Source of the DNA: a virus
Taxonomy: Duplodnaviria; Caudoviricetes
DNA length: 64,000 bases
Virus record (IMG/VR): IMGVR_UViG_3300025674_000014
Direction: 5' to 3' (one strand)
Shown: piece after piece, positions 2,726 through 62,984 of the stretch
Numbering within the stretch: the stretch's first letter is position 1
Layout of the letters: each line of letters starts with the position of its first letter
Notes under the pieces: generated by a model
Told to the model about the DNA's origin: nothing
Database searches by the model: none
Seen by the model: only the letters and a program-made list of their open reading frames with translations
Translations under genes and position numbers: made by a program

Positions 2726-2796
2726 AGCACCCCTCAGAGAGCCATACAAAAATAATATCCTCAAGGTAATAATATATGTGACGTATTAAATATATA

Positions 2797-3384
2797 ATGA
2801 TGTCTGAAGCTTACACATTAACAACAATAGTAAATCCTTATGGGGATGGAGTAAGTTATAATAAAATTATAAAATTTGACTCTAACTTATACACACAAAG
2901 TACATTTGTTTTTACTAAAGAAAATATGAGTGCATTAGTATGTAGAGATATGTACCATAACTGCAGTATAGAAATATTAACTCCTGACATCAGTGTTGAT
3001 GATGTTTCTTCTACATTTTTATCCGGACAAGATATAGAAATGTTATTAGATGGTAATCAAAAATATTTTCTATTTCATTCTTTAGATAAAGTAGTTTATC
3101 AATTATCTTTATTAGGAGCAACTAATAAGTTTCAACAATACATTTACGATAAATTTAATGAAAGTTATATAAAAAATATAGATTTTATATTAATAAAAGA
3201 AAATAATTATAAAAACTTTAATAGTATGTTTATTGATTTTAATAATTCTGAAGATAGTATAATTTTTGGGGCTAGTCCGTATTGTTATTGTAAATATGAT
3301 AGCAATATGTTAGACATTTTTAATACAAACTCTGATAGTGAAGCTGCTGATATTATTGGAGATGTAACTATTATTAGAAATTAA
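2797..3384 (+). CDS. Hypothetical protein
   Basis: 195-aa ORF; TAAATA at 2787-2792. Confidence 0.75.
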   Translation: MMSEAYTLTTIVNPYGDGVSYNKIIKFDSNLYTQSTFVFTKENMSALVCRDMYHNCSIEILTPDISVDDVSSTFLSGQDIEMLLDGNQKYFLFHSLDKVVYQLSLLGATNKFQQYIYDKFNESYIKNIDFILIKENNYKNFNSMFIDFNNSEDSIIFGASPYCYCKYDSNMLDIFNTNSDSEAADIIGDVTIIRN

Positions 3385-3393
3385 ATAATTACT

Positions 3394-4605
3394 ATGTCTG
3401 ACTTAGACAATAAGTTAATCTTCGAAGCTTACTCTAACAACTTGTTAATAGAACAATTGTTAAACCCTAAAGAAATGTTATCAGATATTGAAAATATATT
3501 TAGTGGTGGTGATGCAACAATGGTGATAAGGTATTTACCTGCTAAATTTAAAAATGCTTTAGGAAAGATAGCAGCTAAATCTATTCTTCAATGGCTTAAT
3601 TCTGTACCTGAACAAGATTATTATGATACTAATTTTGATTTATTATCAAACACACAATTAATGGAATTTAGTGAAAGATTCCAGAACATAGGTAAAACTT
3701 TAAACGATTTAAAAAGAGAAGGTGAATGGGCTTGGAATGATGATGAAGAGAAAAAGAAAAACTTCGAACAAAAATATAAAATGCCTCATCCCAGAAATTT
3801 ACCTGATTGGATGTATGAAGAAGGTACTACAAAGTTAAGAGAAGACCTTTATAAATATTTCTCATATAAATTACTAAAAGCCTCATTAAGAGATAGAGTT
3901 GCTGATGAAATTTATAGTCTGTGGAATTCAATATTATCGAAGAAGTATGATAGTGATGAGTGGCCGTATAGTGATCATTTAATGCATGCTATAGATTTTC
4001 TTACTGATTATAGATTGAATGAAAGAATTGCTCAAAGGTCGGGAATAAGATATGCTCATAGTCAAGAAGGTGTCTTAGAATACTTTTTAAAACAACCTGT
4101 TGAACAAAGACTAATTAAAATGAGTAGGGATTATGACAAGGTTTTAAAAGCAATAGAAGGACCTAAAGATCTTGAAAATGCTAAAAAGATTTATGATGAC
4201 CCTAAAAAAGCTAGACTAATAAAAGATTATGGTAATGGATGGAAATGGGTACAATTATTAGATAATGATGCTTGTCAGATATCTGGTGATCTTATGGATC
4301 ATTGTGTTGGGGGGTATGACCCACTTCACCCTACTAGTAGAATTCTACAACTAGTCGGACCAGATGGTGATGGTCATGCTACCATACAGTTAGCCATTAA
4401 CCTCCCAAAGGGACCGGTTAATGAAGTTGTTCAAATTAAAGGTAAAAAGAATTCTAGATTAAAGCCAGAATATGAAAGAATGGTTAAAGATTTATTGACA
4501 TCATATAAAGATAAACCTTTAACTACAAAGCTAAAAAGCATAAAAGGCGGTGTAATAGACTATCCAGCACCAGTAGAACAACCAACTAGTTACTCTTACA
4601 AATAA
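3394..4605 (+). CDS. PcfJ-like domain protein, candidate internal head protein
   Basis: C-terminal MDHCVGGY...ATIQL...VVQIKGKKN PcfJ-like motif; N-terminal LIFE/A processing-like site; late motif at 3382-3387. Confidence 0.65.
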   Translation: MSDLDNKLIFEAYSNNLLIEQLLNPKEMLSDIENIFSGGDATMVIRYLPAKFKNALGKIAAKSILQWLNSVPEQDYYDTNFDLLSNTQLMEFSERFQNIGKTLNDLKREGEWAWNDDEEKKKNFEQKYKMPHPRNLPDWMYEEGTTKLREDLYKYFSYKLLKASLRDRVADEIYSLWNSILSKKYDSDEWPYSDHLMHAIDFLTDYRLNERIAQRSGIRYAHSQEGVLEYFLKQPVEQRLIKMSRDYDKVLKAIEGPKDLENAKKIYDDPKKARLIKDYGNGWKWVQLLDNDACQISGDLMDHCVGGYDPLHPTSRILQLVGPDGDGHATIQLAINLPKGPVNEVVQIKGKKNSRLKPEYERMVKDLLTSYKDKPLTTKLKSIKGGVIDYPAPVEQPTSYSYK

Positions 4606-4613
4606 ATATATAT

Positions 4614-5705
4614 ATGTCAGACTTAGATGACAAATTAATAATCGAAGCTATGAGCAGAAGAGGCTTTCTAGATACACTAGGTAAAGCAGCTGCTGCAGCA
4701 GGACTTAGTCCTAAATTACCTATTCCAAACTTTAGTGATGACGAAGATGACGACGATGACGATGATGATTATGAAGGAGATGACTGGACTGATGTGGAAG
4801 GTCATGATATTGAAGACTGGATTAACGATAATGTATTAGATTATACTATTGATCAGGCAATTGGAGATTCTAAAATATCAAACTCTTTAGTAGATAAAAT
4901 ACAAAAGATAGTATCAGATATAATAGGCTCTGGTGAGGATATTTCTAATGATTTGATGGTTATATTTTCTAAACAATTAAATGATGAAATGAGTAGAGGA
5001 AAACGTTTTTATGAAACTATTGAAGATCCAGAATTTGTAGAGTTAATGATCGCAAATATGACTAAAGCTATACATAACCAGCTTGACTTAAAACAAGTCA
5101 TAGCTAAGGCTGCTGCTAGAGAGTTAAAAGGAGATAAGCCTGAAGATATATTAAAGGATGTTGATGCTGAATTTGAAGCTAAATTAGAAGCTGATTGGTA
5201 TAAGCGAAATTACCCAATCAAATACTCTAAGTTTGATACTGCAGGAGGAACTAAAGAGTATAATTATACTGCAGATAGTTATATTATGAGCAATAAAGAT
5301 GGTAAGATGTTATCAGAGGCTTATCTAAATGAAATAGCATTTGCTAAGAATGTAAATTACAATGATGACGATAGAGTGAAAGATACATTACATGATGTAG
5401 CAGATAGAAAAGATAAGAAGAAATGGAAATTTGATCCTCTTAACCCTGAATCTAAAGATGGTTATCATGAAGAAGGAGAAGAGTCTTTGAAGAAAGTTAT
5501 TGATAAAACATTTGCTTTAAATCTTCCAGGATTAGATGAACTTAATGAAGACATAGCTCATTTAGATATGTTTGTATCATATGATAGAAAAGTATTTAAA
5601 CTTCTTAAAATTACAGGTCTCAATCAATACAGAGTAATGGGTACATATACCGATTCTTCTGAACTCAGAAGAGATATAAGATCTATTCAATTAGAAAACC
5701 TATAA
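4614..5705 (+). CDS. Acidic candidate internal head protein with a twin-arginine-like motif
   Basis: N-terminus MSDLDDKLIIEA-MSRRGFL; poly-Asp tract; internal MLSEAYLNEIA; late motif at 4603-4608. Confidence 0.6.
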   Translation: MSDLDDKLIIEAMSRRGFLDTLGKAAAAAGLSPKLPIPNFSDDEDDDDDDDDYEGDDWTDVEGHDIEDWINDNVLDYTIDQAIGDSKISNSLVDKIQKIVSDIIGSGEDISNDLMVIFSKQLNDEMSRGKRFYETIEDPEFVELMIANMTKAIHNQLDLKQVIAKAAARELKGDKPEDILKDVDAEFEAKLEADWYKRNYPIKYSKFDTAGGTKEYNYTADSYIMSNKDGKMLSEAYLNEIAFAKNVNYNDDDRVKDTLHDVADRKDKKKWKFDPLNPESKDGYHEEGEESLKKVIDKTFALNLPGLDELNEDIAHLDMFVSYDRKVFKLLKITGLNQYRVMGTYTDSSELRRDIRSIQLENL

Positions 5706-9336: not shown

Positions 9337-9709
9337 ATGTCTGTATAACTTTCTTTTTTGTTCTTTCTAGTTCATCAAACACTTCAAGTTTAGCCCAAAA
9401 ATGTTCATCTCTTTCAAGTACTAGATAATGATTACGAATTTTATTTTCTATCTCATCAACGAACTCTTTAGATACTTCTACCATACCTTCTGGACACATA
9501 CAACGATAATACTTATCATCTACCATAACAAAGTCATTGACAGAGAAAGGTCTGATCTTAGCATCTTTAAATGTAGCGCACCCATGAATAGGTGATTGCC
9601 ATTCTTCTTTCAATTTAGTCCAAAAGTAATCCCAATCACCATTACCAAATCGATTAAATTCGAACGTTTTATACCCCGGGTAAATTATCTTTACTTTATG
9701 TAGTCCCAT
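9317..9709 (-). CDS. Hypothetical protein
   Basis: 130-aa ORF; TAAATA 5 nt upstream. Confidence 0.7.
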   Translation of the reverse strand: MGLHKVKIIYPGYKTFEFNRFGNGDWDYFWTKLKEEWQSPIHGCATFKDAKIRPFSVNDFVMVDDKYYRCMCPEGMVEVSKEFVDEIENKIRNHYLVLERDEHFWAKLEVFDELERTKKKVIQTYECAEV

Positions 9710-9717
9710 ATTAATAT

Positions 9718-10245
9718 TTAACTTAAAAGTGAGTCAATTCTATCTTTAACCATATTGATTATATCTTTCTTCTCACCATAATCAAGATTATCTTCAAAGC
9801 CTTTCCAACCTTCTTCTTTTCTAATATCAGGTACATCCCAATACATAATGTTATGGGGATTGATGTTATGTTTCATCTTAAACTTCTCCATCATTGGATA
9901 ATGCTCTCTATAATTCATACAAATAACAATTTGACTTTCATTAATAAGCTCTGGAGTAAGCTCTTGTTGTTCAGGTTCTATCTCCCAATCTTTTACATCT
10001 TTGCTTGCACAAAACTCATAAGCATCTTTATCCATGACAATATCTTTTTTACTACCATGATTAAAATAACTTAAATACCTAAAATCATTAAGTTCATATT
10101 GCAATCTCCAGGGCTCAAATCCTGCAGATGCACATGATAATCCTTTATTGCAGGCAAGAGCCGCAGCTGTTTTGGAACGCAGAACATTCCCGGTGCATAC
10201 GAAAAGGAACCCTCTCTTTAAATCTCTATTATATTCTATCTTCAT
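9718..10245 (-). CDS. Low-molecular-weight protein tyrosine/arginine phosphatase (ArsC/PtpA fold)
   Basis: P-loop FLFVCTGNVLRS (CX5R), SAG, WDVPD; start moved to ATG 10245, 6 nt after TATAAT at 10252-10257. Confidence 0.85.
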   Translation of the reverse strand: MKIEYNRDLKRGFLFVCTGNVLRSKTAAALACNKGLSCASAGFEPWRLQYELNDFRYLSYFNHGSKKDIVMDKDAYEFCASKDVKDWEIEPEQQELTPELINESQIVICMNYREHYPMMEKFKMKHNINPHNIMYWDVPDIRKEEGWKGFEDNLDYGEKKDIINMVKDRIDSLLS

Positions 10246-10283
10246 ACATACATTATATGAACTATCTAATATAAGACAAGAAA

Positions 10284-10349
10284 AAGCTCTCACGGCTAAT
10301 ATATGATTTGCGATGATATATTATTATGAGGAAGACGCCGTGAGAGCTT
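10284..10349. repeat. 13-bp perfect inverted repeat with a 40-nt loop
   Basis: aagctctcacggc (10284-10296) and gccgtgagagctt (10337-10349). Confidence 0.85.
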
Positions 10350-10362
10350 AAATACTTATGCG

Positions 10363-11028
10363 ATGATATTATTATTTAAACTACCCTCGGACTATATTAC
10401 TATATTAATTACTAGCAGCTTAATTCAAAGAATTAGATTTAAACAAAGAGAAGATTATCAAAAAAATAAAGATAAACGTATTGCATATGCTAAAGAACGA
10501 TATGCTGATCCAGAGATTAGGAAAAAGATAAGAGCTAAAGGTGATGAGTATATGAAAAATTACTCACACGAAAAGAAATTAGCTAACATGAAACGTTATA
10601 GAGAAAATTTAAGAAAAGATCCTAAACGATACGCTGCTTATAAAGAGGCTGCTAGAAAAGAACAGACAGAGAGATGCAAGAAGAAAAGAGAGAACAAAAA
10701 CTCCTTATGGTATAAACGATTAAAATTAAGAGGTGCTGTTTATGCTGCGTTTCGTAATCATGCTAAAGGTCAAAGAGTGGCAATTAAGAAGAATAGTACC
10801 ACAGAAGATTTGTTAGGTTGTTCGTTTAAAGAAGCTGTAAAGCATATAGAGAGTTTATTCATTGAAGGAATGAGCTGGGACAATATGGGTGAATGGCATA
10901 TAGATCATATCAGACCTTGTTCATCTTTTAAAACGGATGAACTACATCTAATGAATCATTACACTAATCTTCAACCGTTATGGGCATCAGATAATATAAG
11001 AAAAGGTAACAAAAATACAACAGTTTAA
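10363..11028 (+). CDS. HNH (endonuclease VII-like) free-standing homing endonuclease
   Basis: LLGCS...GMSWDNMGEWHIDHIRPC...HYTNLQPLWASDNIRKGNK; Lys/Arg-rich N-terminal repeats. Confidence 0.9.
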   Translation: MILLFKLPSDYITILITSSLIQRIRFKQREDYQKNKDKRIAYAKERYADPEIRKKIRAKGDEYMKNYSHEKKLANMKRYRENLRKDPKRYAAYKEAARKEQTERCKKKRENKNSLWYKRLKLRGAVYAAFRNHAKGQRVAIKKNSTTEDLLGCSFKEAVKHIESLFIEGMSWDNMGEWHIDHIRPCSSFKTDELHLMNHYTNLQPLWASDNIRKGNKNTTV

Positions 11029-11061: not shown

Positions 11062-11757
11062 ATGACAGTATTAAATCCAAACAACCCTATTGGGCAAATT
11101 AATATATTTGCTTTACCTAGAAGCGGAGGAACTCTCTTGAATATTTTTCTTAGACGGTTCGTTTGCTTCAAGTGTAGTTTAGTGCATCCGATGATGATTC
11201 ATTCTGATGATGTATCTAATTATGGGCCTCATAATATTATGCTGTTAAGACACCCTTATGGTGTATTTGGATCTATGCTTCATGTTGATAGTATTGACCC
11301 TGTTAACAAAAAGGTAAGAGTCAATCCAAATAACGCTGCTGCAAAATTAAACGATATTAGTAGTATGTATGATAGGTTTTTATCATTATTAGATAATAAT
11401 AAAGATAATAACATCCATGTAAAGTATGAAGACTTTCATGAGAATTATGATTACTTTTTAGAGTTGGTAAAGCATTATAATATTGAAATCAATCAAGATG
11501 ATTTTAATATATTCAAATCAGACTTTGACGTGCATGCAGTAAGAAATGATATATATTCTGATACTAAAAAGGAAAAAGACTTTAGACCTAATCATGTAAG
11601 TAGTGGAAGAGGTAGTAACACAGCTAACATGAAACTTGTGCCTAGCGGTATGCGAGAAGAAGTATCAGAAAGATTAAAGCCATTCTGCGATAAATTAGGT
11701 TATGAAGCATTTTCTTTTGTTGACGTACCTGATGAATTAGCTTACGATTTACATTAA
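11062..11757 (+). CDS. Sulfotransferase-family protein
   Basis: 5'-PSB loop FALPRSGGTLL, 3'-PB LLRHPxxxxxS, VKYEDF. Confidence 0.75.
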   Translation: MTVLNPNNPIGQINIFALPRSGGTLLNIFLRRFVCFKCSLVHPMMIHSDDVSNYGPHNIMLLRHPYGVFGSMLHVDSIDPVNKKVRVNPNNAAAKLNDISSMYDRFLSLLDNNKDNNIHVKYEDFHENYDYFLELVKHYNIEINQDDFNIFKSDFDVHAVRNDIYSDTKKEKDFRPNHVSSGRGSNTANMKLVPSGMREEVSERLKPFCDKLGYEAFSFVDVPDELAYDLH

Positions 11758-11767
11758 ATATAAATAA

Positions 11768-12055
11768 ATGGCTAACACGGGTGATAGTAAAATAGGATTT
11801 AATAATTTAGATAACTTTTTAAAAGCTGCTCCAATATTTGGTATTGGTTTGATTGCTTATTTTCAATCACTCTTTCCATCTAAAGAAGATTTTGATAGAA
11901 TGACCCAATCAATGTATCAAATTGAAAAACAAATTATAGAAATTAAATCACTTCAATCATCAGTAGATATTAATACTAAAGCCATTCAAGATATTCAAAA
12001 ACAACTTCAATCTTTAGAGATACAAATTATTAAAATTAATCAGAACGGAGGTTAA
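11768..12055 (+). CDS. Small membrane-anchored coiled-coil protein
   Basis: One hydrophobic segment followed by heptad repeats; TAAATA upstream. Confidence 0.65.
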   Translation: MANTGDSKIGFNNLDNFLKAAPIFGIGLIAYFQSLFPSKEDFDRMTQSMYQIEKQIIEIKSLQSSVDINTKAIQDIQKQLQSLEIQIIKINQNGG

Positions 12056-12660
12056 GCTCTTTCTTCTTCATCACCTTGTTTACCCCGGGTAAATAAATCT
12101 TGAAATGTCTTTTTACCACGTTGATAAAATTTCATAAATGATGGTATTAAGTCTTTATCTTCAATTTCTTTTCTAAACCCTTTTACAACTTCAAATTGTG
12201 GAAGTAACTTTTGTAAACTATTAATTTCATCGGTACTTAATGCAATGCTTTTAAAAGGTTTTACTTTTTGATAACGCATAGGATGTACTTGATCACCTTT
12301 TACTCTTAAATTATAATAGTCATATGTTAAAGGTTTTTTATTATATTTTTGCTGATATGCTCTGTGTAAACGTCCGTGATAAGCCCCATATGTGTCCCAA
12401 ATTATTTTATTATTTCTTAAAAGTATACCTCTTTTAATTCTTGAACGTTTAAATTCATCAGGTGTACCTATCATTATATTATCTCCTATATCTTCAGCAT
12501 CTTCTTCACCTGGATAAGCATTAGCAGGTTGACCATTTGTACCTTCACTCTTATTAGAACCCATGTTAGTGCTATTAAAAGGCCATTGGCGATACTGAGT
12601 ATAAACCTCACCATCACCTTGGTTGTTAATAGGAGCCATTCTTGGTACTTTCTCTGACAT
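12052..12660 (-). CDS. Hypothetical late protein
   Basis: 202-aa ORF; TAAATA 5 nt upstream. Confidence 0.7.
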   Translation of the reverse strand: MSEKVPRMAPINNQGDGEVYTQYRQWPFNSTNMGSNKSEGTNGQPANAYPGEEDAEDIGDNIMIGTPDEFKRSRIKRGILLRNNKIIWDTYGAYHGRLHRAYQQKYNKKPLTYDYYNLRVKGDQVHPMRYQKVKPFKSIALSTDEINSLQKLLPQFEVVKGFRKEIEDKDLIPSFMKFYQRGKKTFQDLFTRGKQGDEEERA

Positions 12661-12664
12661 TTAA

Positions 12665-13339
12665 TTATTTAGTCTTTATAAAAGGCATTAACCATGTACC
12701 TAAATTATCAGAAGAAGAAGCAAAAGGTTCATCTTTTTCAAACCCGTATTGCTGAACAGCATGACTGATGTTTTCTATTTTTAATTCAACATTCCAATCA
12801 TGAACTATCATACAATCACCTACTTTACAGAATTGAGCATATGTGTTAAACTCTCTTGCTTTGTCACCACCGTCACAAAATATTAGTGACTTAAACTGCG
12901 ATATGTTTTCAGATACATGACGCATAGTACTTTCACTAAAAACATTATCATGAAAGTAATTTATGTAAGGTGAAATATCAGCTAATTTTTCAAACCAATG
13001 ACCACATCCTTCAAGAGTTCTATTTTTCCAATCCTTATCAGGATTAATTTCATATGTATCAAAAAACATATCTTCACACACACCTGCATAATTAGCAAAA
13101 TATGTACTTAGACATCCTTTTTGACTACCGAACTCTACCATATATTGAAATTTGTGATTATCAAAATAATATTCAAACCAAGGAATAGCAAAATAGTTTT
13201 GAGACATTCCCCCTCCAATATATTTTTGATTGATACCTTTTAGTTTTTCAATAGTAAGGGGTTCATCTTTATAAATCCTTTTAGGAATCCTATCATCAGA
13301 AGCTTGAATATTTTGTAGTATATTTTTATCGTATTTCAT
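12665..13339 (-). CDS. Class I SAM-dependent methyltransferase (CmcI/Methyltransf_24-like)
   Basis: VEFGSQKG motif I, IFCDGG, IVHDW. Confidence 0.75.
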   Translation of the reverse strand: MKYDKNILQNIQASDDRIPKRIYKDEPLTIEKLKGINQKYIGGGMSQNYFAIPWFEYYFDNHKFQYMVEFGSQKGCLSTYFANYAGVCEDMFFDTYEINPDKDWKNRTLEGCGHWFEKLADISPYINYFHDNVFSESTMRHVSENISQFKSLIFCDGGDKAREFNTYAQFCKVGDCMIVHDWNVELKIENISHAVQQYGFEKDEPFASSSDNLGTWLMPFIKTK

Positions 13340-13361: not shown

Positions 13362-14273
13362 TTAACTATTACGACATGTCTGCCATAAAGCTCCATCACC
13401 TCGTCCAATCTTTCGATACAATCCTTCAGCAACTAACTCACGTAATGCTGAATTAGCATACACAACACTTACTTTATATTGACTGCATATCTGATTAACA
13501 TTAACACTATCAAGCTTCTTCTTTTTAAGATCGTTTTTGATAACCTCTTTCTGATTTTTCTTACTAACATATTTGTTCTCTTTAGCAACAACCTTGCTAT
13601 ACATATCATAGCCTGAATGAGTCATCATAAGAGTCAATTCATTAGTAGGTCCAAATCTGTTCTTTGAAAACCAAATACGTCTGGCTTGATCATCTACTTC
13701 AGCATCAATCATGATATTAAGATTAGCATCAACAGTATGAGGAACAAGCGTAGTACCTTTCAGCTTGCCTGCCTTAGTAAGATGCATAATGAAACAAACA
13801 CAGCACTCATTCTCTTGAGCAGCTTTAACTAGCTTCATCAACGCATAACGTTCTTTCTCTAAGCTGTTCATCTTCTTTCTAGTAGTCAAAGCTTGAAAGC
13901 TATCAATAACTAGAAAGTCATTTGTCTTAGTCAGCTTAACAATCTCATCTACATCAGTCTTATTAGCAATCTGAAGCTTAGTACATTGCAATCGTCTACA
14001 AGTCATAGCTAGCTGATATATATTCTCTTCGCCTGAGCAATATCCAACGCTGTATCCGTTCTTTGTAAGACCTTCTAGTAATTGTATCATGAACGTAGTC
14101 TTACCACAGCCAGCTGCAGCAGTCAATGTCATAGTTGAGCCAGGCAAGAAACCTTCATGAAGAAATTCGTCTACTGTTTCGATGCCAGTCATCATACGCC
14201 TGTAGAAGCGCTCTGGAATCTCGATATTCTCTACAGATAAAAGATCAGTCTGATTAAAATTTAATTCTAACAT
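13362..14273 (-). CDS. radA: RadA/Sms-like RecA-family ATPase
   Basis: TGIETVD, Walker A AAAGCGKT, SGEE, Walker B LVIDSFQ, HLTK..G, KNRFG signature; basic HTH-like C-terminus. Confidence 0.85.
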   Translation of the reverse strand: MLELNFNQTDLLSVENIEIPERFYRRMMTGIETVDEFLHEGFLPGSTMTLTAAAGCGKTTFMIQLLEGLTKNGYSVGYCSGEENIYQLAMTCRRLQCTKLQIANKTDVDEIVKLTKTNDFLVIDSFQALTTRKKMNSLEKERYALMKLVKAAQENECCVCFIMHLTKAGKLKGTTLVPHTVDANLNIMIDAEVDDQARRIWFSKNRFGPTNELTLMMTHSGYDMYSKVVAKENKYVSKKNQKEVIKNDLKKKKLDSVNVNQICSQYKVSVVYANSALRELVAEGLYRKIGRGDGALWQTCRNS

Positions 14274-14279
14274 ACAACG

Positions 14280-14308
14280 ATTATATGCTCCTTCCTTATA
14301 TTGATCAA
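14280..14308 (-). promoter_or_regulatory. Sigma70-type early promoter TTGATC-N17-TATAAT, leaderless
   Basis: Reverse complement TTGATC aatataaggaaggagca TATAAT cgttgt ATG. Confidence 0.85.
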
Positions 14309-14335
14309 GGCGGAATATTCCTTAAATAGGAATGA

Positions 14336-15172
14336 ATGAAGACAATTGTAGCAAGTTTGTGTTTAGATGGATCAATGGCTCAGTCTAATAGATATAAGTT
14401 CAGATCTAAGATACTAATAGATTCAACAATGAAGTATACAAACTTCGATGTTCTAATTGTCACTGATGAACCTGAATACTACGAAGAGTATAATGACAAT
14501 CCAAGAGTGTTTATAGAAGATTTTGTTACAAACTTTCCTGATGATAAAACTATGCTTGGAGGTATGTTTAATTTTAATCTTAAAAGATGTCCTATCAAGT
14601 TAGCTTATCAAAAAGATTATGATGTTGTTTTTTATCAAGATTGTGATGGTTTCTTTTCTGGATGGGATCAAGAGAGCTATGAAGATATGCTCAACTCAGA
14701 ATATGAAATATTCTATGCTACATTTTATCCTCACCATACAGTTAATGATCAGCTAAGTAAGCCTCATAATCATCCAAGTACTGGTCCAAGAGTAAAAGCT
14801 ATGGGTGATTTGATCTATCCAGATTTACTTGATGCTGTCTTAGCAGTTGAAACAAAAATGATATACAAAAACTCCTCCAAGATGAAAGACTTAATCGATA
14901 TATGGGATAAGTTTTCTTATAGATGTCAAGAGTTAAACTTAGCTGTTGTACCAGAGAGTTTATTCTTTTGTATGGCCGGTCGTCATGCTAAGATGGAACC
15001 TATAGGGGTAGAAAGAAACCACCCTATAGGTAAGTTGTGTAATACAATACACGGTTGTTGGATAGAGAAAAAGAATGGTATAGAAGACCCAGTTAAGATG
15101 CTAGACTACTTTGGCTTATTAGAAAGAAGATTTAAATCAGAAGAAGATTTAAGACTATTCCTTGACATCTGA
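14336..15172 (+). CDS. GT-A fold glycosyltransferase-like protein
   Basis: VLIVTD, then YDVVFYQDCD (DxD motif); TAAATA 7 nt upstream. Confidence 0.65.
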   Translation: MKTIVASLCLDGSMAQSNRYKFRSKILIDSTMKYTNFDVLIVTDEPEYYEEYNDNPRVFIEDFVTNFPDDKTMLGGMFNFNLKRCPIKLAYQKDYDVVFYQDCDGFFSGWDQESYEDMLNSEYEIFYATFYPHHTVNDQLSKPHNHPSTGPRVKAMGDLIYPDLLDAVLAVETKMIYKNSSKMKDLIDIWDKFSYRCQELNLAVVPESLFFCMAGRHAKMEPIGVERNHPIGKLCNTIHGCWIEKKNGIEDPVKMLDYFGLLERRFKSEEDLRLFLDI

Positions 15173-15779: not shown

Positions 15780-15786
15780 GCAACTA

Positions 15787-16773: not shown

Positions 16774-16817
16774 ACATATATATTAGGGACTCTCCCTACT
16801 TTTTCAACTAAAAAAAA

Positions 16818-17126: not shown

Positions 17127-17134
17127 ATAATTAT

Positions 17135-17383: not shown

Positions 17384-17420
17384 ATGTTTAAGATAGGGAC
17401 GCTCTCTAATTAGTCAACTA

Positions 17421-17690: not shown

Positions 17691-17721
17691 ATACGTTTAT
17701 TATAATGACAAACTAATAACT

Positions 17722-49734: not shown

Positions 49735-49735
49735 A

Positions 49736-52009: not shown

Positions 52010-52760
52010 CTAACAATTCTTGTACTAAGATTTCCTCTGCATTCCCTTTTCTTTCTGTACCAGTTTCGCTAATTGCTTTTCCTATCATTTTATCATATTT
52101 ACCTTTTCTGTGATGTAACAATACCTTTTGTCCAGGTGTTATGTTAACATCAATACCCATATCAATAAAAGCTTCTACCTTTTCATTATTAACTTCAACA
52201 TTTACACCATAACCATTCATTACAAAAATATAACCTTCTTGAGGTAAAATAGGTTCTGGTGCAGCTGCTTCAACAGTTTGAGGTACACATGATGCACATG
52301 GCTGATAAGTCGGTGTTACTACTGGTGTGCAACAAGTTGGACTAGTCATCTTAACTGTTTCATAAAAATCAATTTGACAAGATTGACTACAAGTTGGTAA
52401 AGGTGTACTATAGCACGTTGTCGGTGATGGAGGTGTACATACCGGGCTTGGATCGCATTGAGCTAAAGGCTGTACGCAATTAGTACAGCAAACGGTGGTT
52501 TGAATAGGACGATAAGCATGATTGTGTTTTTCAGGCTTAGTAAAGTTTTTACTATATGGTGACACCTTATAACCATTACATGTGTTACTACCACAGCAAA
52601 CATTAGCAGTAGAACAGCTAGATTTTAGAACATTTTGAGGTTCTATGCAATAAACAGGAGCAGCAGAAGGAGTAGGTGAAGGAGTACAACATGAAATATA
52701 CCTACTTTTGCTTTTATTTCTTCTGAAAAAACGAGATAGCCATTTAAACATAACGAGCAT
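52002..52760 (-). CDS. Cys/Thr/Pro-rich protein with a small C-terminal beta-barrel-like domain
   Basis: 19 Cys by hand count; start may be ATG 52751 given TAAATA at 52760-52765. Confidence 0.7.
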   Translation of the reverse strand: MLVMFKWLSRFFRRNKSKSRYISCCTPSPTPSAAPVYCIEPQNVLKSSCSTANVCCGSNTCNGYKVSPYSKNFTKPEKHNHAYRPIQTTVCCTNCVQPLAQCDPSPVCTPPSPTTCYSTPLPTCSQSCQIDFYETVKMTSPTCCTPVVTPTYQPCASCVPQTVEAAAPEPILPQEGYIFVMNGYGVNVEVNNEKVEAFIDMGIDVNITPGQKVLLHHRKGKYDKMIGKAISETGTERKGNAEEILVQELLDV

Positions 52761-52784
52761 ATTTAAATGGCTGTATTTTAAAAA

Positions 52785-53066
52785 TCAAGATATATTAGTA
52801 ATAATACCATTAGTAATAGTTAATGTAATGGTACTATCATCAGGTGCTTTTACTTCTAATGATTGAGTAGAACCTCTTAAATCATTAATAATAAACTCGT
52901 CAGCACTTAAAGAAATAACACTAAGGTTAGAATAACCAGTACTTAATGTTTCTATACCTGATGTTGAATTGTATGTAGAATCAATAAGGCTACCAAACTG
53001 TTCAGCTGTAGGAACATCCCCAGTTTCGAAGTAACCTTTTAATGTGCTTATACTTTCTCTTGACAT
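52785..53066 (-). CDS. Small putative virion protein (LKGYFETGDVPTAEQF motif)
   Basis: N-terminal LKxxFxTGxxPTxxQFxxLIDS motif recalled from phage and tail-associated proteins; TAAATA-N5-ATG. Confidence 0.65.
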   Translation of the reverse strand: MSRESISTLKGYFETGDVPTAEQFGSLIDSTYNSTSGIETLSTGYSNLSVISLSADEFIINDLRGSTQSLEVKAPDDSTITLTITNGIITNIS

Positions 53067-53078
53067 ACTAATATTTAT

Positions 53079-53285
53079 TTAGCAGCAACAGCAGCAACTG
53101 TATGTTGCTCTTCCTGCAGTACTAGGGCAAGATGTAGCAGCACTACAAGTAGTGCAAGTCGTACAAGTCGTACCACAACAACAAGCAGCACCGCAGTTGT
53201 TAGGGTAAGTAGTTGATTCTTTTTTAGGTTTTTGGCTACTATATGATTCGCCACCGCAACAAGAGGAGTAATTACAATCGCTCAT
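53079..53285 (-). CDS. 68-aa cysteine-rich peptide (metallothionein-like composition)
   Basis: 16 Cys, C-terminal CCCCC; own TAAATA-N7-ATG. Confidence 0.7.
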   Translation of the reverse strand: MSDCNYSSCCGGESYSSQKPKKESTTYPNNCGAACCCGTTCTTCTTCSAATSCPSTAGRATYSCCCCC

Positions 53286-53295
53286 ATATATCTAT

Positions 53296-55071
53296 TTATT
53301 GAACCGGGGCTGGTTCTGCGGCAGGAGCGGCACCTCCTTCAGGCGGAACTTCGCCTCCAGTTACATCAGGCCCGCCTCCTTCTGGTGGAGGACCAAAATC
53401 AGGGGGTAGGCCTGAACCGCCACCTGCGGGTATTGCACCTCCACCAGCTTCCATTCCTTCTCCCCCTTCGGCTCCACCAGAGGCAATAGCCTCTCTCCAA
53501 TTAGGACCACTAGCTTCAATCTGAGCTAATTCCCAAGTGAGTTCTTTGTCCTTGCGTAAAAATTCTCTATTAGCTTTAACTTCAATATCAGACCAACCTA
53601 AGTACTTCTTCTGAGCCCAAGTATTAGAAACAAACTCACTATTAGTTAAACTTGACCAGTTATTAACTTTAAGCTCAAGCTTTTGCTGCTCTCGCATTTC
53701 AAAGAAGTTAGAAGGTACATTAAACTCTAAATCTAAATTTAGTTCTTTTAGATTATATTTCTCCCATATCTTCTTAAGTTTAAGATGAGTTATAAAGCCA
53801 TTCTTTAATCCTGCAGCAAACTGCATTTGCATACGAATAATAAAACGAGCAAACTTAAGTTCTTCTCTTAATATATCTGTACCATCCTGAAATGATTGCT
53901 CAGGGTTTAATCTAGTTACAGGTACTTTAAGTGACTTATATAACTTCTTCATGAAGTACATTAAGTCTTCCAACTCACCTAAATTCTGACCACCAGCTAA
54001 AGTTGTAACACTTGTACCTTCACTACCTGCTCTCTTTGCAAACCAAAAAGAGTCTAGCATTGACTGAGGTGAAAATTTCATTACCTGACCACTACTATCA
54101 GTATCATATGTATGTCTACTCCAATATTTTTGCTGAAGGTTTCTTAGATAACCTTCTGCTTTAGGAGGTGACATATTACCTACATCTACATTGAATACTA
54201 ACTTCTCAGGTGCTCTTACTAATCTATATATAACAATTGCATCTTCAATGAGAGATAACTGTCTATAAGCTCTTCTAGCATTCTCTAAGTAAGGTAATCT
54301 AATTGTCTTATTATCATTCCAGATACCAGAGTTAACATATGTAACCTGATTTTTGTCCATTGGAATGAGTTGCATGTCCTCAATCTTAGTAGGATTCTCT
54401 TCATTAAAGACAGGTTTTCTTAAAAGATAACCTTGAACAATACTATTTTGAATATTACCAAAAATTGGATCGATGAGTTCGGTGGGAATTTGTACTGTAC
54501 CTAAAATACCTTCTTTTGGGTGATCTTTATGAATAATATGTTCCCAATAAACTTCACCCTCTACAAGTAATTGTCTAAAATATTCCCAACCTTTATGCTC
54601 TAAATCAAAGTAACTAATGAACTTCTGAAATTCATCTTCTAATTGCTTTTGTTCATTAGGTTTAAACTCTCTATGTAAAAATTTTAATTTTACAATCTCA
54701 CCGTTAGCATCTTTGTTTATAATCTCATCACAAATTTCATCTAATGCATCTCCAACTTCAGCAAATGCTGCCATTACTCTATAATCACGAATTCTTGCTG
54801 CTTTATCTTGCTGAATATTCGCATACATGAACTCCTGAAAGCCCTTGTCCATTGCGATATCACCAACAGCTGAATTATTAATAGGTGTAGATGATGAAAT
54901 AGATTGACGCTGTAATGCGTCTTCACGACGACTACCTTCGCCTTGAAATAGCTTATACTTAGGGTTTACGTCATTTAACGTTTCGATAGTTTGATAAGAC
55001 TGATAAGGAAGTCTGCTTTGTACATACTTCATTAACGAACGTCCAAATGTATTTTTATTTCCTGTACCCAT
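53296..55071 (-). CDS. gp20: Portal vertex protein, T4 gp20-like
   Basis: RQLSLIEDAIVIYRLVRAPEKLVFNVDVGNM, FWFAKR, GTSVTTLAGGQNLGE, LYKSLKVPVTRL, ILREELKF. Confidence 0.97.
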   Translation of the reverse strand: MGTGNKNTFGRSLMKYVQSRLPYQSYQTIETLNDVNPKYKLFQGEGSRREDALQRQSISSSTPINNSAVGDIAMDKGFQEFMYANIQQDKAARIRDYRVMAAFAEVGDALDEICDEIINKDANGEIVKLKFLHREFKPNEQKQLEDEFQKFISYFDLEHKGWEYFRQLLVEGEVYWEHIIHKDHPKEGILGTVQIPTELIDPIFGNIQNSIVQGYLLRKPVFNEENPTKIEDMQLIPMDKNQVTYVNSGIWNDNKTIRLPYLENARRAYRQLSLIEDAIVIYRLVRAPEKLVFNVDVGNMSPPKAEGYLRNLQQKYWSRHTYDTDSSGQVMKFSPQSMLDSFWFAKRAGSEGTSVTTLAGGQNLGELEDLMYFMKKLYKSLKVPVTRLNPEQSFQDGTDILREELKFARFIIRMQMQFAAGLKNGFITHLKLKKIWEKYNLKELNLDLEFNVPSNFFEMREQQKLELKVNNWSSLTNSEFVSNTWAQKKYLGWSDIEVKANREFLRKDKELTWELAQIEASGPNWREAIASGGAEGGEGMEAGGGAIPAGGGSGLPPDFGPPPEGGGPDVTGGEVPPEGGAAPAAEPAPVQ

Positions 55072-55075: not shown

Positions 55076-55792
55076 TTAGCATGATTGTGAACTTGACCTA
55101 GATAATGTTATACTCTTGGTTCTTGTTCTTGTAATTGTACTTGTTCTTGTTTGTGATTTAGTAACTGAAGGGGTAATACAAGATGTAGGTCGAGTACATG
55201 AATTAGTTCTAGTTACTGTATTAGTAGGGGTTTTTGTTCTTGTGCCTGTCGGTGTTGGTGTAGCATAATAGCTAACAGTTGGTGAAATTGATTTTGTTAA
55301 TGTTGGTGTAGGTGTTTGTGTTCTTGTTCTGGTTTGTGTTGGTGTTTGAGATCTTGTTCTAGTAGTTGTAGCTGATTGAGTAATAGTAGCAGTTGGTAAA
55401 GGTGTTGCACTTGGTGTCTCTGTTCTTGTTCTTGTAATAGTAGGTGTTTGAGATCTTGTTGCAGTACTTGTAGCACATTGTGTACCGGTTCTTGTTCTGG
55501 TAGTTGAATTAGTACATGTTATGGTAGGCGTAACTAATGGCGTACCAGTTCTTGTTCTTGTCTGAGTTGGTGTGCTTGTACCGGTTTGTGTAGATGTTCT
55601 TGAAAACGTATATGTAGGGGTATAAGTTTGTGAATTTGTCCTGGTTGTCGTAGGAGAAGGTGTATTACAAACTGTTGGGCTGCAAGTTACAGCTGGTATA
55701 CCATGCACATTGGCCTGAGCCCAATTAGAAGCTCTCTGAGGACCACCGTTAGCTTGTCTTATTAAATCTCTAAATGTAGGTATACCTGCCAC
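55076..55792 (-). CDS. Thr-rich low-complexity late protein
   Basis: About 79 of 238 residues are Thr (hand count), 7 Cys; TAAATA-N5-GTG. Confidence 0.7.
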   Translation of the reverse strand: MAGIPTFRDLIRQANGGPQRASNWAQANVHGIPAVTCSPTVCNTPSPTTTRTNSQTYTPTYTFSRTSTQTGTSTPTQTRTRTGTPLVTPTITCTNSTTRTRTGTQCATSTATRSQTPTITRTRTETPSATPLPTATITQSATTTRTRSQTPTQTRTRTQTPTPTLTKSISPTVSYYATPTPTGTRTKTPTNTVTRTNSCTRPTSCITPSVTKSQTRTSTITRTRTKSITLSRSSSQSC

Positions 55793-55813
55793 GATAATAT
55801 TTATGCTTATATG

Positions 55814-60100: not shown

Positions 60101-62174
60101 TTTCGGTAGGAGTATTACCTGGTGTAACCGATTGGGTAGATGTTCTAGTACTAGTGCGTGTTTGTGTTGGTGTTCTAGTCGGGGTCCTTGATCTGGTTTG
60201 AGTTGTTGTTCTTGTATTAGTTGGTGTTTGGGTTGCTGTTCTGGTATGGGTCCAGTTTCTGGTATTAGTTTGAGTGTTGGTAGGTGTTGTCGTAGGAGTG
60301 CTTGTAGAAGTTTTTGATAAAGTTATAGATTTTGTTTGAGTAGGTGTACCTGTAGGTGATGACCCGAAGGTAGGTGTTTGAGTCTGCGTAGGGGTTTGTG
60401 AAATAGATACTGTAATAGTTGCTGTATTAGTAGGTGTTCTAGTCTGGGTAGGGGTTTGAGTTACTTCAGGTAAATAAAATCTATGTTTTATGTTATTAAA
60501 ACTTTGCAATACTTGAGCAGTACTTAAAGCCTTTTCATAGACTTTAACGATAGCCATTTGTCCGTCAAAATTACCCGTACTATTAACAACGCTACCCAAT
60601 TTAGGGCTAACACTACTACTATAATCATACGTATCTGTAGTAGATAAATTAGTTACACCGTTTATATAAAGTCTAGAAGTTCCTGAAGACCTAACTAAAG
60701 CAAATTGATACCAGTAGCCGGTTTGTAAAGTAAAGCTTGTATCTTGTGTCCAACCTAAAGAAGGATTGTAATAAGAAAAGTAGTTATTATAAAAACCAAA
60801 AGTAAAATCTCCTGCAGTGTTATTGAAGTTAGATAAAAGTACAGATGAACCGTTATTTAAACTGTAAATTTTAGCCCATATAATATAACTAAAATCATTT
60901 GTACTTAAAGATGTTATATTGCTGCTGCTAATATCAATACTACTTCCCTGATCAAAAGTAAAGTTTTTAATAGAAGAGGGTGTTGAACCTGAATTATAAA
61001 AAACATCACCGCTTAGAGAACCGTTATTAGTATTTGAAGTTAAATCTGTCCATTGATTAGCTGTACCGGTGGACGAACTATTGTCGGCATCCAAATACAT
61101 TATTAACCCTTCAGTTAATGAACCTGTACTAGTACGGGTAATAGTATTTGTAGGTGTGGGGCTGTTGCTACTTGTTCTTGTTGATGTATGTGTGTTAGTT
61201 GGTGTCTTACTTGTTGTTGGTGTATTAGTAGATGTTACATCTGGTGTACCGGTTGGTGTGGCAGTATTAGTAGGGGTACGAGTAGCGGTTTCTGATGCAT
61301 TGGTAGTAGGTGTAATAGAGCTAGTTCTAGAAGGTGTTTTAGTATGAGTAACTTCAGGTGTCTGTGTTTGTGATGAAGTTTGTGTAGGTGTATAAGATGG
61401 TGAAGGAGTTTGGGTAGCTGTATTAGTGGTGGTTTGAGTTTGAGTAGAAGTATTAGTTGGGGTTTGAGTTTGAGTGCCTGTTTGTGTTCTTGTTAAAGTT
61501 TGAGAAGGTGTTGGTGTTAATGTTGTGGTATTAGTTGTAGTTGATGTAACCGTTACAGTGGGTGTAGGTGATGAACCTGTAGTAGCAGTAGATGTAACTG
61601 TACTTGTACTTGTTCTTGTAGCTGTATTTGTATTAGTTGGTGTTCTAGTCGGGGTGGGTGTATTGGTTGCAGTACCGGTAGGTGCTGGTGATGACCTTTC
61701 TGGTGTCTTTGTTGTATTAAGAGATTGAATATAAAAAGGGTAATCACTATTAATTGACGGAAATACATTATAGCCACCAGGACTGGTAATAAGAAACTTA
61801 AACTCACCTGTTGCAATACCAGATAAAGCTCCAAGACCCACTTGTACGGTATTTGATGTATAATCAAAAAATACATCACAACCTAAATCTAAAGCATTAT
61901 AAGCACTAAATGCAGGGTAAGTAGAAGATAATGATGGAATATCAGAGTAATAAGTTACACTACTTAAATTAACCGTTGAGAGAGAGTTGGGGATAAATGA
62001 AGATGGGTTAGAGCTGCTCAAATAAACCTGATAAGTCGAAGCTTTCCCTAAGCTGTTACCTGCACCGCCTCTAGTAAAAGGTATTTTAAAAACAAACGAT
62101 TTTTCATACTCACTGTAAATCAGTTTGTTAATTTGATTATTATTAATTAAAAGTTTTTGTCCAAATCTCTTCAT
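57168..62174 (-). CDS. 1668-aa modular virion adhesin/fibre with three LamG/ConA-like domains and Thr/Pro-rich linkers
   Basis: GLIMYLDA...QWTDL...KVYEKALS, LTMQVDAS...IIKTYS and WIDASD...AEGYLAWKWG domains separated by TPTQTRT-type repeats. Confidence 0.8.
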   Translation of the reverse strand: MKRFGQKLLINNNQINKLIYSEYEKSFVFKIPFTRGGAGNSLGKASTYQVYLSSSNPSSFIPNSLSTVNLSSVTYYSDIPSLSSTYPAFSAYNALDLGCDVFFDYTSNTVQVGLGALSGIATGEFKFLITSPGGYNVFPSINSDYPFYIQSLNTTKTPERSSPAPTGTATNTPTPTRTPTNTNTATRTSTSTVTSTATTGSSPTPTVTVTSTTTNTTTLTPTPSQTLTRTQTGTQTQTPTNTSTQTQTTTNTATQTPSPSYTPTQTSSQTQTPEVTHTKTPSRTSSITPTTNASETATRTPTNTATPTGTPDVTSTNTPTTSKTPTNTHTSTRTSSNSPTPTNTITRTSTGSLTEGLIMYLDADNSSSTGTANQWTDLTSNTNNGSLSGDVFYNSGSTPSSIKNFTFDQGSSIDISSSNITSLSTNDFSYIIWAKIYSLNNGSSVLLSNFNNTAGDFTFGFYNNYFSYYNPSLGWTQDTSFTLQTGYWYQFALVRSSGTSRLYINGVTNLSTTDTYDYSSSVSPKLGSVVNSTGNFDGQMAIVKVYEKALSTAQVLQSFNNIKHRFYLPEVTQTPTQTRTPTNTATITVSISQTPTQTQTPTFGSSPTGTPTQTKSITLSKTSTSTPTTTPTNTQTNTRNWTHTRTATQTPTNTRTTTQTRSRTPTRTPTQTRTSTRTSTQSVTPGNTPTETRTQTRTPTFTPSQTATISYTPTRMATTATPTCTRTRNATTATPTRTASNTYTATPTKTRTSTQASYSCCHLTMQVDASNIYSYPGSGNIFCDVRRNNDLYICGSPQYVTYFGPSNHFCLNGSTDCMVCGYQLAKNTAIPRTEAGPIQNRYPYTFIFWIRVRSNISSSASSYTVPIVTDYNNQANVCYFMMGVRGSGDTVNAGKLDFWEKDNDGNEIFARTSLTYNDNSWHQVAFVADSTKLRIYVDGAIRAISEANRPSGIITNSTPMKWFSGNNSNLDADIAIIKTYSGIALSQDSIVSTYNVLRPRFSLGPITPTPTNTRTTTQSRTRTNTPTITPTNTSTSTNTPTASVSPTVTPTVTRTPSSTDTPGVTATRTPTNTRSRTQTPTQTRTNSQSPTPTNTNTQTPTQTSSNTPGLTPTPTNTRTASQTPTTTPTPTQSPTSTSTKTSTRTPSPTNTRSRTQTPTTTQTPTTTPTNTVTNTQTPLRTFNNSLTGTGSAPHPSANGVTFQSSAGDVFEFDTDLTGGPAFDTMYVYLDSSIKSVVSYSYNGYTGDTFRIQFAPSSTWYYGTFRNGNIYFTSPAVTPTRTKTQTRTGTQTPTPTSTSTGTPAATQTKTPSRTNTQTRSQTPTQTRTNTKTQTPTQTRTGTQTPTPTTVGANWAPDDLSNLVSWIDASDTSSWSSSGGILTSVTDKAGTYTMTVGGTPTTTNNQNSLNVFTFNGSNEYLQSTGYSSQVSSGNHWAIGVFRYDTTNNSQDSFWSYETNQSPKRDYAISSASSSNTWPGELDLDGLSSGRISNTIGNLQSWNLQSVTRYNYTIIASNFNKTGNQISVRVNGSNAFTPVNDYTNSISTNQQLRLFRNRASQELDGRLAEFFAAGQLPGTSGTDISTIEKAEGYLAWKWGLVSSLPSNHPYKNSRPTVPVTPTPTQTRTATQSGTLTPTPTVTPTRTATQTPTKTKTPTSHANQIYVRYYDE

Positions 62175-62971
62175 TATTGTGAAAATATAAATGATTCAAT
62201 TTCTTGCTCTGAAGCAGAAACTGTAACTGTTTCGGTTATTGCTGATAATCCTGACAACTGAGTTCTCAATGTTGGGTAATTATCTAAAGTAAGCACTGTG
62301 CCCGTATTTTCAGTACCACTAACAGCATAGAAATTAGCATCAACTCTATAAATGTTACTAACGTTATTTTGAGCTGCAGGAAATATCCAACCTTTAATAG
62401 TGAATGTTGTATCAGCGGTAACTCGTGCTTTATCTGAAGCTTGCAACTCGGTTGGGTAAGACATGTTAATATTTCCATCCCAAAGTACTTCACTTCTTAT
62501 TTCTTGCATTTCAGATAATGCACCTAAGCCCGATGGAACTGGCCAGCTTATAATAATATAAGGGTTATTATAAGGTATGAAATTAGATAAGATTTGATCC
62601 ATATCTAATTGATATCTTGTTATAACAGAAAAATTAACTGTAATGTTTACTGGGGTAGGAGCATTATATTTGTTTGAATACTGGTCATTACTATAATAGA
62701 AACCGTTAACATCAGGTAACTTGTTAAAAACCCTATCATTATCTCTAGAAATACCTGCTACATTGATAGCAACTACCGGTAAAGTAATTGTTTTTGCTTT
62801 ATTGACTATATCATAAAGAACGCGCTGTTTAGGAGCGTATAGATATCTTACAAAAATCCTATCTTTTTGCTCTCTATTCTTATTATATCTACCAATAACT
62901 ATACTATCAAAAGCATTAGCAAATTGAATAATAAGGTCTTGTATTTCAAAGTATGTCGACTTCCAACGCAT
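62174..62971 (-). CDS. gp15: Tail terminator/sheath stabiliser, T4 gp15-like
   Basis: IIQFANAFDSI, VRYLYAPKQR, ITLPVVA, DMDQILSNFIPYNNP, FTIKGWIF. Confidence 0.88.
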   Translation of the reverse strand: MRWKSTYFEIQDLIIQFANAFDSIVIGRYNKNREQKDRIFVRYLYAPKQRVLYDIVNKAKTITLPVVAINVAGISRDNDRVFNKLPDVNGFYYSNDQYSNKYNAPTPVNITVNFSVITRYQLDMDQILSNFIPYNNPYIIISWPVPSGLGALSEMQEIRSEVLWDGNINMSYPTELQASDKARVTADTTFTIKGWIFPAAQNNVSNIYRVDANFYAVSGTENTGTVLTLDNYPTLRTQLSGLSAITETVTVSASEQEIESFIFSQ

Positions 62972-62984
62972 TCAAAATATTTAT

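Follow-up and report, generated by a model that had tools for sequence, protein, structure and literature searches.

Candidate promoters set against start codons in a window of T4-like phage DNA point to mostly leaderless mRNAs

Introduction

The 64,000-nucleotide (nt) stretch of viral DNA in IMG/VR record IMGVR_UViG_3300025674_000014 (Duplodnaviria; Caudoviricetes), referred to here in its entirety as the window, carries the hexamer TAAATA a few nucleotides ahead of many start codons on both strands. What does this hexamer do so close to a start codon? Late transcription in phage T4 is a textbook system, comprising the sigma factor gp55, the co-activator gp33 and the sliding clamp gp45, and an earlier note on this DNA had read the hexamer as a gp55-type late promoter that gives individual late genes messenger RNAs (mRNAs) lacking a leader. 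We consider it probable that gp55-type late promoters, and sigma-70 promoters in addition to them, are placed against start codons and give mostly leaderless mRNAs.

We assign the window, which is 32.3% GC and 95% coding, to a distant T4-like myovirus, uncultured and aquatic. Its portal protein is of the T4 type and about 30% identical to gp20 of Aeh1, of cyanomyophages and of the pelagiphage HTVC008M. Other products include baseplate wedge and hub proteins, a gp15-like sheath stabilizer, a holin-like protein, two gp44-like clamp loaders, nucleases and a dUTPase. A megablast search of the window against GenBank phages returned no DNA-level match; since the portal is in addition only about 30% identical to those of cultured T4-like phages, no cultured relative and no host can be assigned. 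IMG/VR holds identical fragments of the window DNA together with many relatives, whose portal identity ranges down to 58%.

Results

TAAATA stands at a fixed distance from start codons

All 29 start codons listed in the earlier note carry TAAATA on the correct strand, separated from the codon by five (15 sites), six (8) or seven (6) nucleotides, spacings written N5, N6 and N7 below. The codons are ATG in 26 cases and GTG in three (18549, 34504 and 55792; genes are named by their start position). Two further boxes, at N8 before 10363 and 52751, bring the late sites to 31 (Table 1). Altogether 36 boxes precede a called start by no more than 40 nt, 31 of them at N4-8, and there is no T4-like cluster at N20-30.

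To assess this pattern independently of gene calls, we scored every TAAATA copy on both strands for an ATG at spacers of 0-30 nt. ATG followed at N5, N6 and N7 in 15, 10 and 7 cases, or 32 of 108 copies, and every other spacer accounted for 0-5. The other 14 permutations of the hexamer gave 4-18 matches each, from 116-204 copies apiece. The earlier note had proposed comparing the spacing with shuffled controls, and 200 dinucleotide-preserving shuffles gave 9.8 ± 3.0 matches (maximum 20) against the 32 observed. An open reading frame (ORF) of at least 60 amino acids (aa) is opened by 26 of these 32 ATGs, compared with 13.5% of all ATGs in the window, and in 22 of the 26 ORFs the box-linked ATG is the first in frame.

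The hexamer is also depleted, with 108 copies in the window against 179 expected from dinucleotide shuffles; 24 intragenic copies are in sense and 46 in antisense orientation. This scarcity is consistent with selection against stray promoters, although an in-frame TAA would also keep sense copies rare. TAAATA is invariant at the 31 sites, and no column from -14 to -1 before it is conserved, which indicates that there is no conserved -35 element. The first four spacer positions after the box are 84-90% A/T. Genes that carry the late box encode the baseplate wedge and hub, the sheath stabilizer, the Mtd_N (major tropism determinant N-terminal) fibre-like protein, the holin-like protein and the endonuclease VII-like protein and are mostly virion genes; replication genes mostly lack it.

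The absence of Shine-Dalgarno (SD) sequences, which the earlier note had also reported, was borne out. An SD core occurs between -20 and -4 at 10.5% of starts, compared with 6.0% at random positions, and the identical pipeline finds it at 54% of starts in T4 and 47% in HTVC008M. Upstream of the window starts there is no G peak, and G is depleted.

Spacing and start codons match initiation on the start codon

In T4 the first T of the late box lies at -13, and the box is followed by an A/T-rich segment (PMC2988020). The box thus ends at -6, and a start codon at N5 would begin at +1. For sigma-70 promoters, whose -10 hexamer has its last base at -7, the equivalent spacing is N6. We counted spacings in 1.15 Mb of de-duplicated DNA from the clade. 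TAAATA peaked at N5 (122, 54 and 25 cases for N5, N6 and N7), and the sigma-70-type element TTGnnn-N16-18-TATAAT peaked at N6 (13, 24 and 10). This one-base offset is what would be expected if both promoter types set +1 on the start codon.

The identity of the start codon follows the same geometry. At N5 from the box, the clade has ATG in 111 cases, GTG in 20, TTG in one and CTG in one, with no TTG or CTG peak. GTG starts are concentrated at a single spacing, with 20 at N5, two at N6 and none at N7. A start codon with a purine in first place would be expected if that base is the initiating nucleotide.

Sigma-70-type promoters abut start codons of replication genes

The earlier note had described the arrangement as a regime of late genes. 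That restriction did not survive, since about 11 sigma-70-type promoters abut ATGs in the same manner, at genes for replication and nucleotide metabolism. Nine have the form TTGnnn-N15-17-TA(T/A)nnT, one has a weak -35 element and one is an extended -10. Full promoters of this type have ATG at N6 six times, compared with about 1.5 times at other spacers. The genes behind TATAAT-type elements encode the clamp loader, the ATPase, nucleases and the dUTPase. For the exonuclease at 45626, the orthologs in relatives retain a sigma-70 promoter at N6-7, and two of them have TTGACy-N16-TATACT-N6 ahead of the start.

Gene layout suggests nested transcripts

Box genes lie 8-13 nt behind the upstream gene. 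The modal gap between co-directional genes is 8 nt, which corresponds to a TAA stop that doubles as the start of the box, with ATA and N5 behind it; the overlap of the motif with the upstream stop, also claimed earlier, is thus frequent. Among the co-directional genes without a motif, 16 of 22 overlap the upstream gene or lie no more than 4 nt from it, suggesting that they may be translationally coupled to it. Even divergent gaps of 33-62 nt accommodate two promoters, and the spacing of the box is unchanged in divergent intergenic regions of 33-117 nt.

Terminator-like hairpins occur at chance level (8, compared with 8.8 ± 3.8 in shuffles). Given this, and given about 16 promoterless genes that overlap or abut the gene upstream, the idea of separate transcription units has to be given up; the transcripts are probably nested, with read-through.

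Box, spacing and start codon are conserved in relatives

In relatives, homology of the orthologous proteins begins at the called starts, and the box, its spacing and the start codon are kept while the spacer sequence drifts. Three of the starts that the motif corrects relative to the ORF track were checked (36981, 44925 and 45925), and all three hold: HTVC008M gp44 aligns from its residue 1 at 36981, and orthologs back the other two.

The gp15-like gene has the box at N4-8 in 19 of 19 distinct orthologs of at least 70% identity. Among orthologs below 70%, the box is at N4-8 in 10 (often with GTG), 9-39 nt away in 14 and in neither position in three. An SD-like element is present in 8 of the 14 with the more distant box, and TTG starts occur in this group only. 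The box accordingly behaves like a promoter able to sit near or far, with SD sequences only where there is a leader. Among portal-proximal genes, 11-57% of starts are box-adjacent in relatives, compared with 0-5% in T4, cyanophage P-SSM2 and HTVC008M.

A predicted cascade from host polymerase to gp55

The transcription start positions, the gp55 dependence and the mode of translation in the following model are deduced from sequence. Early and middle genes would be transcribed by the unmodified host sigma-70 polymerase from TTGnnn-N16/17-TATAAT, with the -10 element (-12 to -7) ending 6 nt before the ATG and the A of that codon as +1. Late in infection, the host RNA polymerase with a gp55-type sigma factor would read TAAATA, the invariant core of the T4 element TATAAATA (-13 to -6). 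Initiation 6 nt after the box would make the A (or G) of the start codon the first transcribed base at N5; at N6-7 there would be a leader of 1-2 nt, or the polymerase would choose the purine of the start codon. The resulting 5'-AUG or 5'-GUG mRNAs would enter the leaderless pathway, in which ribosome and initiator tRNA assemble on a 5'-terminal start codon, without SD pairing. Promoterless genes that overlap or abut their predecessor would probably be translated by termination-reinitiation. With terminators rare, transcripts would be nested, and each promoter would mainly serve the cistron at its 5' end.

The gp55 gene is not in the 64-kb window. Homologs (phrog_234, E 8e-28) are present in three relatives, one of them complete at 209 kb, and more than 590 stretches in IMG/VR are gp55 relatives. 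In about 20 relatives the gp55 gene is preceded by TTGAAA-N17-TATAAT-N6-ATG. Because of this arrangement, a coherent cascade can be proposed: a leaderless early message, transcribed by the host polymerase, would supply gp55, which in turn would recognise the TAAATA boxes. A search for gp33 (phrog_254) gave no match in five relatives and likewise matched none of its control genomes. The gp45 clamp (HTVC008M protein, phrog_223) was not recognised in the window or the relatives. For proteins as small or divergent as gp33 and gp45, such results are uninformative.

Weighing the leaderless interpretation

The earlier claim of gp55 late promoters with leaderless mRNA is supported by spacing geometry, start-codon identity, operon context, ortholog conservation and the comparison with T4. 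It does not extend equally to every site. Several observations weigh against it. At 14 of the 29 sites the spacing is N6-7, where a leader of 1-2 nt is as likely as none. The two positions preceding the box, which complete the T4 8-mer, are weakly A/T and not conserved, so that the match is to a 6-bp core. Leaderless mRNAs are poorly translated in Escherichia coli, an odd fit with abundant virion proteins. The RNA material comprised six runs with 5-15% of sampled words, all of them contigs, and four were aligned on 36000-55999; the contigs in this region are 151-427 nt long, unstranded and of low depth, contain no sites where molecules begin or end, and give no verdict on starts. Some of these short metatranscriptome contigs bridge several predicted starts (e.g. 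52994-53320 and 51654-51876), as could arise from read-through or DNA carry-over. Ends of metagenome contigs for the gp15-like gene show no clustering at the ATG, which is normal for DNA assemblies.

Part of this evidence would suit a different explanation, in which TAAATA is indeed a late promoter and its position next to the ATG is a by-product of compaction into 8-13 nt gaps, with the 5'-AUG transcripts poorly translated and protein made mostly from longer read-through mRNAs by coupling or another SD-independent route. The high coding share, the box that often shares the upstream TAA stop, the terminators at chance level, from which read-through is expected, and the RNA contigs that span several predicted starts all agree with it. 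Compaction nonetheless leaves unexplained why GTG sits at exactly N5 and TTG starts are lacking, and why the two promoter classes differ by one base. Nor does it account for the same spacing in divergent regions of 33-117 nt, which have room for leaders, or for SD-like elements that return solely at starts with a distant box. We regard this explanation as unlikely.

A role of TAAATA in RNA, as a non-SD ribosome-binding or A/U-rich enhancer element on conventional, longer transcripts, is very unlikely in our judgement. The lack of SD sequences would fit, and a fixed spacing of 5-7 nt is also typical of a ribosome-binding site; such a site, however, would not bar TTG starts, and to our knowledge TAAATA is not complementary to the conserved 3' tail of 16S rRNA. 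The motif is identical to the gp55 promoter core, and gp55 occurs throughout the clade. Replication genes use another box, whose -35 element 16-17 nt upstream would be meaningless in RNA. The motif is missing from coupled genes, and in T4, P-SSM2 and distant orthologs it lies 10-30 nt upstream. It is hardly credible that AT-rich DNA produced the pattern by chance or that miscalled starts created it. At 32% GC the window has many TAA stops and A/T-rich gaps, but the shuffles fall far below the observed count, the 14 permutations give fewer matches from more copies, and the homology of orthologs starts at the called starts.

Table 1. Candidate promoters at start codons of the window. Nn, n nucleotides; the number after each codon is its position; ORF track, program-made list of open reading frames; L005 and L006, two relatives.
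Coordinates	Strand	Class	Element and start codon	Gene product and remarks
2787..2802	+	late	TAAATA-N7-ATG 2800	194-aa protein, no family match; in-frame ATG 2797 = N4
3382..3396	+	late	TAAATA-N6-ATG 3394	403-aa protein
4603..4616	+	late	TAAATA-N5-ATG 4614	363-aa protein
9707..9720	-	late	TAAATA-N5-ATG 9709	130-aa protein
10349..10365	+	late	TAAATA-N8-ATG 10363	endonuclease VII-like protein
11755..11770	+	late	TAAATA-N7-ATG 11768	95-aa protein
12658..12671	-	late	TAAATA-N5-ATG 12660	202-aa protein
14323..14338	+	late	TAAATA-N7-ATG 14336	278-aa protein; divergent from early gene 14273
17124..17137	-	late	TAAATA-N5-ATG 17126	ORF-track start was GTG 17144
18082..18095	-	late	TAAATA-N5-ATG 18084	endonuclease (phrog_452)
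18547..18561	-	late	TAAATA-N6-GTG 18549	70-aa protein
26684..26698	-	late	TAAATA-N6-ATG 26686	723-aa protein
29810..29824	-	late	TAAATA-N6-ATG 29812	1038-aa protein
34450..34463	-	late	TAAATA-N5-ATG 34452	gp25-like baseplate wedge; 51-nt divergent gap shared with gene 34504
34493..34506	+	late	TAAATA-N5-GTG 34504	208-aa protein
36979..36992	-	late	TAAATA-N5-ATG 36981	gp44-like clamp-loader paralog; ORF-track start was TTG 37083
37527..37542	+	late	TAAATA-N7-ATG 37540	158-aa protein
42241..42255	-	late	TAAATA-N6-ATG 42243	453-aa protein; then genes 40882, 40530 by overlap
44161..44175	-	late	TAAATA-N6-ATG 44163	636-aa protein
44923..44936	-	late	TAAATA-N5-ATG 44925	baseplate hub-like; box + N5 + ATG kept in L005, L006
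45923..45936	-	late	TAAATA-N5-ATG 45925	ORF-track start was TTG 45967
46282..46295	-	late	TAAATA-N5-ATG 46284	116-aa protein
46976..46989	-	late	TAAATA-N5-ATG 46978	87-aa protein
47261..47274	+	late	TAAATA-N5-ATG 47272	holin-like (phrog_3427); box + N5 + ATG kept in L005, L006
48230..48244	-	late	TAAATA-N6-ATG 48232	133-aa protein; conserved in L005, L006
51761..51776	-	late	TAAATA-N7-ATG 51763	675-aa Mtd_N-domain fibre-like protein; box + N7 + ATG kept in 4 relatives
52749..52765	-	late	TAAATA-N8-ATG 52751	less certain site; inside 15-bp-stem inverted repeat 52738-52772
53064..53077	-	late	TAAATA-N5-ATG 53066	93-aa protein; box at N5-8 in 6 relatives
53283..53298	-	late	TAAATA-N7-ATG 53285	68-aa protein
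55790..55803	-	late	TAAATA-N5-GTG 55792	238-aa Thr-rich protein; box + N5 + GTG kept in 7 relatives
62969..62983	-	late	TAAATA-N6-ATG 62971	gp15-like tail sheath stabilizer
2083..2120	-	early-type	TTGATG-N17-TATAAT-N6-ATG 2085	48-aa ORF
10243..10279	-	early-type	TTGTCT-N16-TATAAT-N6-ATG 10245	175-aa protein
14271..14308	-	early-type	TTGATC-N17-TATAAT-N6-ATG 14273	helicase-like ATPase
15777..15813	-	early-type	TTGAAA-N16-TATAAT-N6-ATG 15779	endonuclease
16771..16807	-	early-type	TTGAAA-N16-TAATAT-N6-ATG 16773	328-aa protein (phrog_1221)
17381..17417	-	early-type	TTGACT-N16-TATCTT-N6-ATG 17383	82-aa protein
17688..17725	-	early-type	TTGAAG-N15-TATAAT-N8-ATG 17690	89-aa protein
36026..36062	-	early-type	TTGAAA-N16-TATCAT-N6-ATG 36028	gp44-like clamp loader
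37487..37523	-	early-type	TTTACT-N16-TATTAT-N6-ATG 37489	dUTPase; weaker promoter
45624..45641	-	early-type	TGtTATAAT-N6-ATG 45626	exonuclease; extended -10
47221..47259	-	early-type	TTGATT-N16-TATAAT-N8-ATG 47223	77-aa protein

Individual late and early sites

Several sites deserve separate description. Gene 24515 overlaps the stop of gene 26686 by 1 nt and is probably coupled to it. The Nol-like carbamoyltransferase gene (GTG 18583, plus strand) has TAAGTA-N5 upstream, one mismatch from the box (18551-18585), and shares a 33-nt divergent gap with the box of gene 18549. Neither the portal gene nor a 453-aa protease-domain gene has a box; both carry CATGCTAAT within about 30 nt upstream (55072-55090 and 57176-57207, minus strand). 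In more distant relatives, TAAATA is present at N4-9 before the portal gene.

On the minus strand, the inverted repeat at 52738-52772 encloses both the late box and the ATG of gene 52751. In five distant relatives, the box of the gp15-like gene lies in the loop of a perfect inverted repeat of 10-12 bp, 10-15 nt before the start. These box-enclosing repeats look like a DNA-level element, for example a regulator site or a cruciform, because only the 3' arm would be transcribed.

Among the early-type promoters, many share an extended -35 element, tAGTTGA, with the gp55 promoters of relatives. The minus-strand promoters at 2086-2120 and 14274-14308 have a nearly identical spacer, TATAAGGAAnGAGCATATAAT, and a third similar stretch lies ahead of gene 1904; the 'aggag' within this type of spacer is part of the promoter and not an SD sequence. 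Within 47221-47274, the minus-strand -35 element (47254-47259) and the plus-strand late box (47261-47266) stand back to back, one base apart, ahead of the divergent genes 47223 and 47272. A full TTGATC-N17-TATAAT-N6-ATG on the plus strand (12283-12437), antisense within the late gene 12052-12660 (minus strand), opens a 37-aa ORF, which may be a leaderless small gene or may be due to chance.

The two gp44-like paralogs are adjacent (35111-36981, minus strand), and each is about 35% identical to HTVC008M gp44. The upstream copy (start 36981) lies behind a late TAAATA box and the downstream copy (start 36028) behind a sigma-70-type promoter. Neither a gp62-like small subunit nor the gp45 clamp was recognised near the pair, and Pfam searches of the adjoining ORFs returned the dUTPase and no clamp. 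At 48469-51763 (minus strand), two consecutive proteins of 675 and 421 aa, separated by a 1-nt gap, each have an N-terminal Mtd_N domain and are probably fibre or receptor-binding proteins.

Discussion

The earlier note had also taken the arrangement as a clue to the host, and this holds only in part: non-SD translation and a canonical sigma-70 polymerase are indicated, and the clue is a weak one that names no host. Such promoters speak for a host whose polymerase is of the ordinary sigma-70 type. Bacteroidota promoters are of the -33/-7 type; since the promoters here have canonical -35 and -10 elements, the host is probably not a member of that phylum. The layout could also reflect a takeover of the host, in which the phage or its clade alters translation (e.g. 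the anti-SD end or initiation factors) so that only 5'-AUG and 5'-GUG messages are read and SD-dependent host translation is shut off, with a separate promoter for every phage cistron. We think this distinctly unlikely, and the window offers no candidate factor: bS21 and RegA gave no match in the window or in the relatives' loci examined, and the window has no tRNA genes.

If leaderless mRNAs, from host-type and gp55-type promoters alike, are indeed the rule in this large, environmentally widespread T4-like clade, the expression level of a gene would depend on promoter strength alone. Roughly half of the genes would then require a promoter of their own, which would explain the extreme promoter density, and the AT-rich aquatic hosts would need to translate efficiently with no SD pairing. 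For such phages, start codons can be annotated better with the motif-to-start rule, which also gives precise predictions of transcription start sites for metatranscriptomes.

The late boxes resemble T4 late promoters in that TAAATA is the last six bases of TATAAATA, in the lack of a -35 element, in the A/T-rich sequence after the box and in their presence on both strands. As in T4, they are tied to virion, lysis and endonuclease VII-type genes, with gp55 encoded in relatives and gp44-like loaders in the window. The box is 6 bp here compared with 8 bp in T4, and neither gp33 nor gp45 was recognised in relatives. T4 and P-SSM2 leave 21-29 nt between box and ATG and have an SD sequence in the leader; here the distance is 5-7 nt and there is no SD sequence. 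Since late transcription in T4 and cyanophages yields leadered, SD-containing mRNAs, a leaderless clade would stand in contrast to them.

HTVC008M, a cultured aquatic T4-like phage of Pelagibacter (SAR11) with similar GC, shares the T4-like core genes, and in a few of its genes TAAATA or TATAAT precedes the ATG by 4-8 nt. It differs in having an SD core in 47% of its genes, including the major head gene, and a box at N4-8 in only 3 of 56 genes of a 50-kb region. The leaderless layout is thus not simply a trait of AT-rich marine phages, because this phage is mostly SD-led. No leaderless RNAs were seen among the early transcripts of phiKZ (PMC8244752). In the literature covered, which leaves out most subscription journals, we found neither a connection drawn between gp55-type promoters and leaderless mRNAs nor a description of this layout.

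The closest parallel in layout is offered by the Thermus phages phiYS40 and Lalka27a and by Deinococcus-Thermus hosts, in which a -10 box adjoining the ORF gives leaderless mRNAs. These phages belong to an unrelated lineage, the late motif of Lalka27a is TAGGGT, and their hosts are GC-rich thermophiles known for leaderless mRNAs, whereas the phage studied here is AT-rich and aquatic and its layout is predicted from sequence. The systems share a -10-type element a few nucleotides before the start codon and the lack of SD sequences; transcripts of the Thermus phages and their hosts begin with an initiator A or G, and the distinct late -10 element of these phages implies a phage-modified polymerase.

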